Origin: Octopus vulgaris
Lineage: Eukaryota
Direction of reading: 5' to 3'
NCBI GenBank assembly: GCA_951406725.2
Contig: OX597839.1
Location: forward strand, 11,718,001-11,782,000
Length of the DNA: 64,000 nt
Shown: positions 8,849 to 59,862 of the stretch, piece by piece
How the letters are laid out: each line of letters starts with the position of its first letter
Position numbering within the stretch: position 1 is the stretch's first letter
Position numbers and translations under genes: made by a program
Notes under the pieces: generated by a model
What the model saw: the letters and a program-made list of their open reading frames with translations, nothing else
What the model was told of the DNA's origin: nothing
Databases searched by the model: none

Positions 8849-8920
<72 letters not shown>

Positions 8921-8921
<1 letters not shown>

Positions 8922-9091
8922 GCTTACTTGGAAAAGGATGCGTGGCGTTCGATCATATAAATAATATAAATAATATATAAATATATGCATATATACATAC
9001 ATATATGTACATACCTACATAAATATGTATATATACATGCATATATGGGTACAGGATATAAAAAAAAAACGTTGAACACAATGAGAAACGA
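8921..9091 (-). mobile_element. 3' fragment of the permuted-hammerhead element family
   Basis: CTTACTT.GAAAAGGAT and ATATGGGTACAGGA..AAAAAAACGT.GAACACAATGA shared with 15006-15180; truncated by a SINE A head at 9092. Confidence 0.7.
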
Positions 9092-15005: not shown

Positions 15006-15006
<1 letters not shown>

Positions 15007-15471
15007 GAACAAACTTACTTAGAAAAGGATACGTGCGTTCTGTCGTGTAATAACAAATTAATAAATAAAACATATGCATATATACATACATATATGTACG
15101 TACCTACCTCTACATGTATATATACATGCATATATGGGTACAGGACACCAAAAAAACGTCGAACACAATGACAAACGAAAATATAAACGCAAAACCAAGG
15201 AACTGGACATTTTTCTTAAACAACGAAAAAATAGAGTACAAGATAAATAACACAAGGAAAATTCCCCTTCTTCAGTCGCCATGGTTTCATCTACTCCGCG
15301 TTTCGAAGGTGAAGGCGAGACGCGACTTCAACTGAAACATTCCTTCCCGAGAAAAGCAAATTAAATAAAATTTGAGATTTTTTCGCGGAGGGGTAAAAAT
15401 GGTAACAAAAACAGGACAGGAACGACAGTACAAAATATAAACAGTAAAAGACAGGACAAGGAGAATAACAG

Positions 15472-17341: not shown

Positions 17342-17734
17342 TTTCAAATTTTGCCACTAGGACAGCAAATTTGGGGGAGGGGATGAATCGATGTAATCGA
17401 CTCCAGTGCGTAACTGGTACTTAATTCATCGACCCCGAAAGGATGAAAGGCAAAGTCGACCTCGGCGGTATTTGAACTCAGAACGTAGCAGCAGACAAAA
17501 TACCTATTTCTTTATTACCCACAAGGGGCTAAACACAGAGGGGACAAACAAGGACAGACATAGGTATTAAGTCGATTACATCGACCCCAGTGCGTAACTG
17601 GTACTTAATTTATCGACCCTGAAAGGATGAAAGGCAAAGTCGACCTCGGCGGAATTCGAACTCACAACGTAACGCAGACAAAATACCGCGAAGCATTTCG
17701 CCCGGCGTGCTAACATTTCTGCCAACTCACCGCC

Positions 17735-39182: not shown

Positions 39183-39723
39183 AAAAAAGTATACATACAT
39201 ACATACATGCATACATACATGCATACATACATACATATATACATACAAACGTACATATATTGTAAATATTTTCTACCATCAAAAATACGAGCAAATAAAA
39301 CAACAAATGTTTAAATGTCTTGCTTTTTCTCCTTTCCTTGGCAGCAGCCGACACTTTCAGTCAAATGATTTCAGTTAAGTTCCAAGTCGTGACACAAATG
39401 ATTGTCACAAATTTCCTTCACGCAGCTGTTTCATAAATCATTTAGTTCTCAGCTATGTCACAAGCAAATTACAATTGTCCGTAATTGTAATTTTCTTACA
39501 AATCATGCTCGACATTGCTGTCTCTTCCATCAGTCGCCATTTTCACACACAAGTTACACGAAGTCCAAACGCTATTTATATCGTCTGTCACGACACATTT
39601 CACTGAAATCAATATATTTACACACAAAAACGCCTTGACACTTCAGTTATTGTTACTTTACACTAAATATCATTGCTGTTTGTAGATTAGACACAAGCCA
39701 AAATTATTTGTGTGTGCGTGTGT

Positions 39724-43198: not shown

Positions 43199-43545
43199 TT
43201 TTAGTCTACAGTCTACCTGGCCATTTACGTTTTAGTCTACAGTTTACCTGGCCATGTACGTTTTAGTCTGCGGTCTACCTAGCCATTTATGTTTTAGCCT
43301 GCAGTTTACCTGGCCATTTACGTTTTAGTCTACGGTCTACCTGGCCATTTACGTTTTAGTCTACAGTTTACCTGGCCATTTACGTTTTAGTCTACAGTTT
43401 ACCTGGCCATTTATGTTTTAGTCTGCAGTCTACCTGGCCATTTACGGTTTAGTCCGCGGTCTACCTAGCCATTTATGTTTTAGTCTACGGTCTACCTGGC
43501 CAATTACGTTTTAGTCTGCAGTCTACTTGGCCAATTACGTTTTAG
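43199..43545 (+). repeat. ~11 copies of a 31-bp tandem repeat TTTTAGTCTACAGTTTACCTGGCCATTTACG
   Basis: Directly visible; no spacers. Confidence 0.95.
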
Positions 43546-57209: not shown

Positions 57210-57252
57210 CCACCTGAAGATTGTCGATCAAGACAAGAAACGATTGTAGTGG
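57210..57252 (+). ncRNA. Type I minimal hammerhead ribozyme
   Basis: CCAC CTGAAGA TTGTC GATCAA GACAA GAAAC GATT GTA GTGG; complete core, all stems pair. Confidence 0.82.
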
Positions 57253-57474: not shown

Positions 57475-57624
57475 GTATATATAGTTATACACACACACAC
57501 ACATATATATATATGCATAGTTATATATATATATATATATATAAACCAGCTTAGAGAAGAAGAAGAAACGAAACCAAACCAAACGAATCGAATCGAATCG
57601 ACGCGAAGGCGCTCAGTCATACAA

Positions 57625-58020
57625 TAGTGTAATAAATAAAATATATGCATACACACAAACATATATGTACGTACCTACATGTATCAGTGTTCACTATTTT
57701 CTTCTTGTTCTGGTCTAACGACCCTCCATGTTTGTTTTCGTGCGGTCCCTGACCTGTTTTTGTTCCCAACTTTGACCCTCCATAAATCCTAAATTTTATT
57801 TTAGAATTTTTGGGAGAAACTTTCTTCGAAGACTCATATTGTCGTTGAATGCTCGAAATGAGGAGTAGATATATAGCTGACAACTGATGAAGGGTCGGTT
57901 CACTGTGTCTACTTGTCCTGTTTTCCATTTTTCTCGTTGTTTACGTGTTTAACTCGTTGCCTACGTATTTCATGTTGTTTACATAGTTGGTGACGTCTTG
58001 TACCCATATATATGCATAAA
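57625..58020 (+). mobile_element. Second copy of the permuted-hammerhead element, with an inverted piece at 57625-57684
   Basis: 57685-58020 matches the reverse complement of ~15125-15470; 57625-57684 matches 15058-15120 directly, so it is inverted relative to the body. Confidence 0.72.
57833..57895 (+). ncRNA. Non-circularly permuted hammerhead ribozyme candidate, copy 2
   Basis: CTCA-TA-TTGTCG ttgaat GCTC-GAAA-TGAG gagtagatatatagc TGACAA-CTGATGA-A-GGGT; stems covary with copy 1. Confidence 0.78.
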
Positions 58021-58073
58021 TATATATTATTTATTATTATATATATATATACACATATTTACATATATCTATG

Positions 58074-58228: not shown

Positions 58229-58263
58229 GTTTCCGACGAAGAGCTCCGCTCGAAACGTCATAC
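58229..58263 (+). ncRNA. Minimal hammerhead (mutated core CCGACGA) in a Penelope-LTR-like element
   Basis: GTTT CCGACGA A GAGC TCC GCTC GAAAC GTC ATAC; same family as 28147. Confidence 0.58.
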
Positions 58264-58898: not shown

Positions 58899-59314
58899 TG
58901 GTGAGCTGGCAGAAACCTTAGGAAGCCGGACGAAAAGCTTAGCAGTATTTCGCCTGTTTTTTTCGTTCTGAGTTCAAATTCCGCCGAGGTCGACTTTGCC
59001 TTTCATCCTTTCGGGGTCGATAAATAAAGTACCAGTTACGCACTGGGGTCGATATAATCGACTTAATCCGTTTGTCTGTCCTTGTTTGTCCTCTCTGTGT
59101 TTAGCCCCTTGTGGGTAGTAAAGAAATAGGTATTTCGTCTGCCGCTACGTTCTGAGTTCAAATTCCGCCAAGGTCGACTTTGCCTTTCATCCTTTCGGGA
59201 TCGATTAAATAAATACCAGTTACGCATTGGGGTCGATATAATCGACTTAATCCGTTTGTCTCTCCTTGTTTGTCCTCTCTGTGTTTAGCCCCTTGTGGGT
59301 AGTAAAGAAATAGG
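58899..59314 (+). mobile_element. Dimeric Nin-domain-like SINE D
   Basis: Two ~180-bp tandem units ending CCCCTTGTGGGTAGTAAAGAAATAGG. Confidence 0.87.
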
Positions 59315-59862
59315 TATGGAGAGCTTGCTGTGTTTAGGGTGGGAGGAGGAGGAGGAGGAGAAGTGAAGGTAGGAGCAATTCGACTAAAAATCCAGGGTGG
59401 TGCCCCAGTATGGCCGCAGTCTAATAACTGAACCAAATAAAAGATACAAAATAGTATGACTGCATATACACCCAGCCACCCGACAACAACGATATCTTAG
59501 CTTACAGTTTATTACCATTCACATCAAGAAAACTTCTTCCGCGGCTAAAAAATTGTTTTGCTTTTGTTGCTGTTGTTGTTGTGGACGTTGTATTTGCTTT
59601 GGTTATTTATTTATATATTTTAATGCATTTTTTTCCCTTTTTGCTTGTTTCCTTCGTGTTTTTTTAAAAGATTTTTTTTTCTCAGTGTTATGTACATTGT
59701 GTTTTTTTTCTATCATTGTTATACATGTTGTTGTTCTTCTTCTTGTTTGTTCCCCTGCCCCCTCCTTCCTCTCCAATTAGGTTTTATTGCCCTGATATAT
59801 TGTTGTTTATTGTGTGCAATTCACATGCGTGGTTTTACTAAAGAAAAATATAAATACATAAG

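Follow-up and report, generated by a model that had tools for sequence, protein, structure and literature searches.

A 63-nt motif at positions 57833-57895 of the window (here and below the whole 64,000-nt stretch of Octopus vulgaris DNA that was analyzed, numbered from its first letter) lies in what is probably a decayed copy of a high-copy, non-coding Penelope-type element, likely Naiad-derived, carrying a predicted six-helix split-core hammerhead that would cut after A57838. The fold occupies about 125 nt, includes a pseudoknot among its six helices and has a core that lies open between A9 and G10.1. Compared with the hammerhead ring of types SGC and CSG it is circularly re-opened, at a point inside block C, i.e. 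the joint of CUGANGA with stem II, which has been assumed to be unbreakable (Eckert et al. 2023, PMC10085705). Its structure is well supported and its enzyme activity is predicted; it would be a split-core form of a ribozyme class already known. On balance we favour a wider reading, in which this is a natural active hammerhead whose ends lie inside the core, between A9 and G10.1 at a helical junction, and which would be a seventh wiring in addition to the six regarded as possible. In that reading Naiads across animal phyla carry the ring opened in various ways (split-core in molluscs and corals, type-CSG in nematodes), so that the clade has ribozymes, and thousands of genomic insertions would owe their 5′ ends to self-cutting.

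Collection of copies and alignments

The genome is 2.8 Gb in size and rich in microsatellites. The pattern GAAA-GAGUAGAU-CUGANGA has 4419 exact genomic matches and its reversed control has none, which argues against a chance occurrence of the motif. Further exact patterns, with overlapping sets of matches, gave 4360 (control 61), 148 (control 0) and 3846 (control 427) hits, the last set taking in unrelated repeats. DNA searches with the two window copies returned 4778 and 4293 candidates, 40 of which were scored from each. From 278 distinct motif copies 166 were sorted, giving 28 subfamilies in lineages A-H. The pair counts use the majority strings of 24 of the 28 subfamilies, the remaining four having been omitted because truncated copies dominated them. 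Covariation of stems I, II and III was scored on a structure-blind MAFFT alignment of 35 natural copies.

The patterns used for collecting copies demanded CGAAA and CUGANGA, so that a free test is confined to UH and the flanks. C-GAAA and CUGA-GA, preselected by the search patterns, are invariant throughout the 35-copy alignment, and H17 is never G there. Since the families are related, shuffle counts are not to be taken as probabilities.

The host element

In family B the element occurs as 5′-truncated single copies, partial tandems and head-to-head inverted pairs. It ends in a conserved motif followed by a tail and is inserted in (TA)n or (CA)n. The hallmarks of Penelope-like elements (PLEs) and Naiads include partial tandems, inverted 5′ copies, a tail and 5′ truncation (PMC8557442), and all four are found here together with microsatellite targets. 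Next to the flagged copy the inverted fragment 57534-57680 adjoins its 5′ end, a Penelope-type hallmark in itself. The full unit of family B, its length being taken from the partial tandem L058, is about 870 nt long, pyrimidine-rich and non-coding. The element group does not fall among non-LTR retrozymes: its members are mostly single truncated copies with some partial tandems, and the ribozyme is not type I. Elsewhere in the window B-like and G-like 3′-end fragments of the same element group, without the ribozyme, lie at 8919-9091 (minus strand) and 39197-39254 (plus strand), respectively.

In 220 loci screened for open frames no ORF with reverse transcriptase and GIY-YIG endonuclease was found that belongs to families A-H, and tblastn with one C-terminal-endonuclease PLE protein and Naiad fragments detected no ORF belonging to these families. 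A Naiad ORF was absent from the 5 kb upstream of 15 copies of families E and G, and no long coding frame lies near 57833-57895 in the window. Families A-H, having no ORF, are therefore non-autonomous. An abundant PLE family with a 781-aa protein and C-terminal GIY-YIG was considered as the autonomous partner and rejected, the motif being absent nearby. Loci L298-L300, on contigs C16, C17 and C9, represent a young Penelope-type family with two ORFs. Many of its copies keep the 781-aa reverse transcriptase/GIY-YIG frame intact; the other ORF, upstream of it, measures about 360-380 aa, the 3′ UTR consists of tandem repeats, and there is no hammerhead core nearby.

The upstream part of the unit in five loci (L058, L050, L084, L128 and L285) suggests that a spliceosomal intron has been retained, as happens in other PLEs. 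Close to where the unit starts there is a donor-like GTAAG, followed about 290-370 nt on by an acceptor-like AG/CGTT, around a pyrimidine tract. The one pattern used for the spliced form of this putative family B intron had no genomic match.

Motif order and state of the two window copies

Read 5′ to 3′ on the plus strand, 57833-57895 consists of a stem III strand, UA, a stem I strand, a 5-nt link, GCUC-GAAA, the second stem III strand, GAGUAGAU, a linker, the second stem I strand and CUGAUGA-A-GGGU. An earlier note on this DNA had pointed to the core motifs GAAA, CUGANGA-A and UH, and all of them are present. Of the core pieces S (stem III, UA, stem I) comes first, followed by G (GAAA) and then C (CUGAUGA), an order that belongs to none of the hammerhead types I-III and equals that of type-SGC (PMC10085705). 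With the upstream strands described below, the predicted fold would run from 5′ to 3′ as stem IV, hairpin V, stem II, pseudoknot, III-UH-I, II-GAAA-III, pseudoknot, I-CUGANGA and stem IV; A9 would lead straight into stem IV and G10.1 would arrive from hairpin V (Table 1).

Table 1 Features of the two element copies in the window and of the fold predicted for the flagged copy
Feature	Position	Strand	Remarks
First window copy, family B1, with tail	15006..15470	-	ribozyme 15393-15264
Inverted 3′-end/tail fragment, related family	57534..57680	-	85.7% over 147 nt to family F unit
5′-truncated decayed family A copy, non-coding Penelope-type element	57684..58017	+	57689-58040 83.7% to L007
Stem IV, 5′ strand	57774..57779	+	pairs 57891-57896, 6/6 Watson-Crick
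Hairpin V	57780..57813	+	between stems IV and II, zero unpaired bases either side
Stem II, 5′ strand (G10.1 onward)	57814..57818	+	supplied from upstream, outside flagged interval
Pseudoknot helix, 5′ strand	57820..57825	+	pairs 57871-57876
Stem III, 5′ strand, with U16.1 (57837) and H17 (A57838)	57833..57838	+	
Stem I, 5′ strand	57839..57844	+	
Stem II, 3′ strand (57850-57854), GAAA (57855-57858), stem III, 3′ strand (57859-57862)	57850..57862	+	
GAGUAGAU linker	57863..57870	+	lineage-specific, not invariant
Pseudoknot helix, 3′ strand	57871..57876	+	
Stem I, 3′ strand (57878-57883), CUGAUGA core (57884-57890)	57878..57890	+	
Stem IV, 3′ strand	57891..57896	+	begins directly after A9
Conserved 3′-end motif, running into (TA)n	58000..58017	+	common 20-mer, 5576 exact matches, control 0

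The flagged copy has four of the five stem II pairs and four of the six pseudoknot pairs, the family majority having 5/5 and 6/6, respectively; seven of the eight outer pairs of hairpin V are formed and one has decayed. It is regarded as worn because of these defects (a single mismatch each in II and V and two mismatches in the pseudoknot) and of a wobble in stem I, and as a predicted ribozyme it is likely to be weak or dead. The G-U pair at the outer end of stem I is ascribed to decay after insertion, since the family majority has C there. Of the 30 family A copies that are closest to the flagged one, 19 still have their core intact. As a separate feature of family A, 57822-57833 (from the pseudoknot strand to stem III) is part of a 12-nt palindrome when its CpG is intact; this palindrome could favour dimers, and other families are without it.

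The partner of the flagged motif lies at 15324-15264 on the minus strand. In this copy stems I, II, III and IV and the pseudoknot are all Watson-Crick paired, the sole mismatch is in V, and the copy is near intact. The two loci, which had been taken for diverged copies of one element, are homologous: 228 of 362 columns (63%) are identical across the flanking 310-340 nt, and the alignment score is 84 as compared with a mean of 4.3 and a maximum of 24 in 200 shuffles.

Covariation of the helices

It had been proposed that selection in the source elements has kept a non-circularly permuted hammerhead-type fold with compensatory changes in three stems. The fold itself and its selection hold; the third helix as then described does not. 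Alignment of genomic copies with scoring of covariation upheld the changes in stems I and III, and failed to do so for the proposed stem II. In stems I and III 94.0% of 381 cells pair in the 35-copy alignment, with double changes in 10 of the 11 pairs. Their score of 0.778 compares with 0.094-0.179 in slid controls, and the observed value was matched by none of 500 shuffles.

Stem II had been drawn as CUUC/GGGG in one window copy and GCUC/GGGU in the other. Two of the four pairs are G-U in each, both strands pair better elsewhere, and the GGGU/GGGG strand belongs to the extra helix IV. The five bases before GAAA vary by lineage (UGCUC, CCUUC, GGUGC, GGGGC and GGCGC), and a segment about 40 nt upstream tracks them (GAGCA, GAAGG, GCACC, GCACC and GCGUC, respectively). 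Over 24 subfamilies the upstream stem II has 116 Watson-Crick pairs, one G-U and three mismatches in 120, with an upstream landmark that was chosen after inspecting the sequences; with the strand downstream of CUGANGA-A the same count gives 46 Watson-Crick pairs, 45 G-U and 29 mismatches. In the blind alignment 91.4% of 174 cells of the upstream stem II pair, with 38 double changes and a score of 0.624, despite three rows being out of register, as against 72.8% (wobbles allowed) and 0.233 for the downstream one. When partners were swapped among eight lineage representatives, 12 of 40320 orders were as good for the upstream strand and 6640 of 40320 for the downstream strand. The downstream stem II was rejected on its Watson-Crick count, its lower alignment score and the outcome of the swaps.

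The pseudoknot is a helix of 5-10 bp that starts one base past the upstream stem II strand and pairs with the linker before stem I, so joining the outer ends of stems I and II. Partner swaps over the eight lineages were as good in 4 of 40320 orders. On the blind alignment 66.8% of cells pair, no better than after a slide by one column, because the register of the pseudoknot differs between families. It is these 6-10 nt after GAGUAGAU, forming the covarying pseudoknot, that matter in the linker. GAGUAGAU itself had been called invariant, yet it is found in 11 of the 28 subfamily majority strings, being kept in A, C and most of B and replaced by other linkers in D, B7, E, F, G and H. The topology-specific role once suggested for it gains no support, given the other linkers in families D, E, F, G and H and in Naiads; a tertiary role in the A-C lineages alone is still conceivable. 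Inspection by eye had also suggested a helix of GAGUAGAU with the U-rich stretch that follows the core; it was abandoned in favour of the upstream partner in the pseudoknot.

Stem IV is formed by the strand after A9 and a segment 35-60 nt before stem II (12 of 40320 swaps as good). A partner for it within 17 nt upstream was not found (33410 of 40320 swaps as good). In 26 copies 86.1% of 259 cells of stems IV and V pair, with double changes in seven of ten pairs, and RNAalifold used unguided picks stem IV, two pairs of V and stem III. Slid controls for helix covariation fall to 25-60%. Helices IV, V and II run on without an unpaired base and stem IV starts at the base after A9; the A9-G10.1 bond is therefore replaced by a helical junction. 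A9 is joined to G10.1 neither directly nor via 1-2 nt, helices IV and V intervening, while stems I, II and III flank the core and covary, stem II through its upstream strand. Such a core would presumably fold like that of a standard hammerhead and cut. During synthesis of the RNA, hairpin V and stems II and III could form first, after which the pseudoknot, stem I and finally stem IV would dock the CUGANGA strand, so that cutting would wait for the whole 125 nt.

Relation to known hammerheads

The type-SGC hammerheads (HRIMA-1 and its variants) share with the window fold the order S, G, CUGANGA, a short link between stems I and II, and pseudoknot strands placed 1 nt after a stem II strand and just before a stem I strand (PMC10085705). 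In type-SGC the unit of stem II strand, one base and pseudoknot strand follows CUGAUGA, whereas in the window fold it precedes the cut site; a stem II strand directly after CUGANGA is not found here, block C is split, and the extra helices IV and V close the gap. Type-CSG, known from two sequences only, forms the same closed ring with the stem II and pseudoknot strands ahead of the cut site; its stem I-CUGANGA piece comes first and is joined to stem II, while in the window fold that piece comes last. According to the same report, type-SGC has been found only in metatranscriptomes and in no genome of a known organism (PMC10085705).

The minimal type I hammerheads of PLEs (PMC4209133) and the non-LTR retrozymes (bioRxiv 10.64898/2026.07.22.740005) resemble the window element in their position near the 3′ end of a Penelope-type unit, in many 5′-truncated single copies and in non-coding derivatives arranged in partial tandems; A9 is known to be followed by one additional base in them. 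Their order is the canonical C-G-S, their stem III is very short and they act as dimers (PMC4209133), whereas the window fold, with full stems and at least four helices that cross, might form in a monomer. A linker inserted after A9 is tolerated in engineered minizymes (PMC544870), and natural hammerheads with a one-pair stem II are held by a pseudoknot (PMC3088659, PMC11300833); this corner of the core is therefore flexible. Our literature search, whose coverage left out most subscription journals, found no account of split-core wiring or of Naiad hammerheads.

If true, the proposed reading would overturn the published assumption that the CUGANGA block is inseparable from stem II and would add a natural hammerhead topology. 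Animal genomes, from which non-circularly permuted ribozymes had not been reported, would then be found to contain them, and a core opened or closed by two helices would be a new handle for ribozyme switches.

The fold in Naiads

Naiads have been reported to be without a canonical hammerhead, with eight 'half core' cases listed, among them Naiad_Ovul as 'HHR_half_core' (PMC8557442). Read by eye, the 3′ ends of Naiad_Ovul and Naiad_Obim contain stem II (5/5), the pseudoknot (5/5), stem III, GUA and stem I (6/6), as well as hairpin V and a wobble-rich stem IV. At least three coral Naiad entries likewise contain IV (6/6), V, II (6/6), the pseudoknot, III and I, and among the matches listed a comb-jelly entry and two unnamed entries fit the six-helix fold too. 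The helix sequences used by these Naiad 3′ ends are, again by eye, unrelated to those of families A-H. At least two nematode Naiad consensus 3′ ends, the entries preceding Naiad-2_Nbra and Naiad_Asuum in the supplement to PMC8557442, read as intact type-CSG with the same long pseudoknot and would thus be the same ring opened elsewhere. If the fold is active, Naiads seemed to lack hammerheads because the search descriptors assumed the canonical order.

One motif of the published octopus Naiad consensus has 302 exact matches in the genome. Of 20 Naiad_Ovul motif copies viewed with 3.5 kb of upstream sequence, one has a decayed Naiad ORF on the same strand. The decayed Naiad ORF (L418/L432) contains the DKA motif and YIDD, and L432 ends in the same fold.

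Fold and target preference tie families A-H to Naiads, from which they are likely derived. Both groups have (TA)n targets, partial tandems, inverted 5′ copies, a tail and 5′ truncation (PMC8557442), and the same predicted ribozyme stands at the 3′ end of Naiad_Ovul, Naiad_Obim, the coral entries and the window families. The window families differ from Naiad_Ovul in having no ORF and no clear primary sequence in common with it outside the core. A Naiad protein may well move the non-coding families.

5′ ends of insertions and RNA reads

The predicted cut site, placed by the hammerhead consensus, lies 3′ of 57838. The 5′ ends of copies were mapped relative to it with microsatellite masking and anchoring. 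Among 71 distinct copies picked by the 3′ 20-mer (from the matches listed on contig C1, of 5576), 16 start 0-25 nt after the cut; the 100 nt preceding the cut contain three starts, and the 100 nt that follow the 25-nt zone contain 17. This corresponds to 15.8, 1.1 and 3.0 starts per 1000 nt at risk, respectively, and to p values of 2.6e-7 (against the segment before the cut) and 8.3e-6 (against that downstream). In a set of 91 core-anchored copies, partly from the same loci as the former, 24 start 0-12 nt after the cut and two in the 13 nt before it (p 1.6e-11). Most near-site 5′ ends of families A-C lie 6-12 nt past the site, with a spread to 25 nt. The excess is weaker in 90 copies of D, E, F and Naiad families (12 vs 25 events, p 0.006), seven of which start within 1 nt of the site, two of these being a local pair.

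The pile-up fits a cleaved template with some trimming of the end; a similar peak might arise if the polymerase stalls on the fold or if a start site lies nearby. By cutting, the ribozyme would shorten tandem or read-through transcripts and release a short 3′ piece that would often be inserted, and many copies may start just past the site because they derive from this 3′ cleavage product. The pile-up makes it testable whether a PLE ribozyme shapes the inserted RNA.

In three unstranded RNA runs from a related organism a family A copy is covered end to end by 923, 768 and 596 reads, taken from about 6% of each run. The family is thus transcribed, and these reads contain no pile-up of ends at the predicted cut. 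Depth over the family A copy climbs in the downstream direction, both in RNA and in another run whose kind is not stated, and a young family B copy is barely covered by RNA reads. In one expressed copy the cut position coincides with the junction of an inversion (loose ends at 1669); this is a feature of the genome and not a proof of RNA cleavage.

Alternative explanations

A plain type-SGC hammerhead of 63 nt would use the strand after CUGAUGA-A as stem II and hold the upstream helices as an off state, displaced before cutting. That form has been proven experimentally, although true type-SGC alignments have a Watson-Crick stem II at this place (PMC10085705), where ours counts 46 Watson-Crick pairs and 29 mismatches in 120. 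The pairing of 72.8% of cells with wobbles, including one position that goes from C-G to G-U, speaks for it, yet swapped partners did as well in 6640 of 40320 orders, and in families E, G and H no more than one or two of these pairs are formed. CUGAUGA-A is always followed by G, which could pair with C11.1 in 35 of 35 copies; stem IV accounts for the invariant A-G, however, and the base that follows A9 in the Naiads of octopus and corals is unable to build stem II at all. We hold this form to be very unlikely here. It is hardly credible that common descent and a composition rich in G and U have produced all pairings, with the structure unselected. Copies do decay neutrally after insertion, as the proportion of family A copies with an intact core (19/30) indicates, and U-rich and purine-rich strands pair easily; neither would account for Watson-Crick covariation in five to six helices at a fixed register, with slid controls at 25-60%, nor for the recurrence of the layout with unrelated letters in coral, comb-jelly and octopus Naiads.

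Rather unlikely, in our estimate, is a six-helix fold that is real and either does not cut or depends on a protein, serving as a binding or priming signal, with the 5′ pile-up arising from stalling or a nearby transcription start. The RNA reads, devoid of a read-end signal, agree with it, as do the offset and spread of 5′ ends in families A-C, whereas several copies start exactly at the site. The metal site of the hammerhead core lies at A9-G10.1, and a break there could disturb it; nevertheless all catalytic positions, together with the UH rule, have been retained in families whose helices are unrelated and in different phyla. A hammerhead that needed protein is known from an anole PLE, for which it was dispensable in vitro, the element being inserted without cleavage (PMC11167929), while the ring of the window fold is present in nematode Naiads as a type-CSG hammerhead that reads as intact. 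The preferred reading is still the split-core hammerhead cutting after A57838.

Other repeats in the window

Canonical-order minimal hammerhead motifs of other Penelope-like families lie at 57210-57252 (plus strand), 58233-58259 (plus strand) and 28177-28150 (minus strand), two of them within 650 nt of the flagged copy. Rfam hammerhead models gave no match in the window at the gathering score and missed these three canonical motifs as well. A tandem array at 43199-43545 is built of 11 copies of a 31-nt unit with 88% matches. A 285-nt repeat occurs at 58961-59245 and 17388-17672 in opposite orientations; the two are 92% alike and resemble a common SINE, and the repeat is itself tandem-duplicated near 58950-59320.
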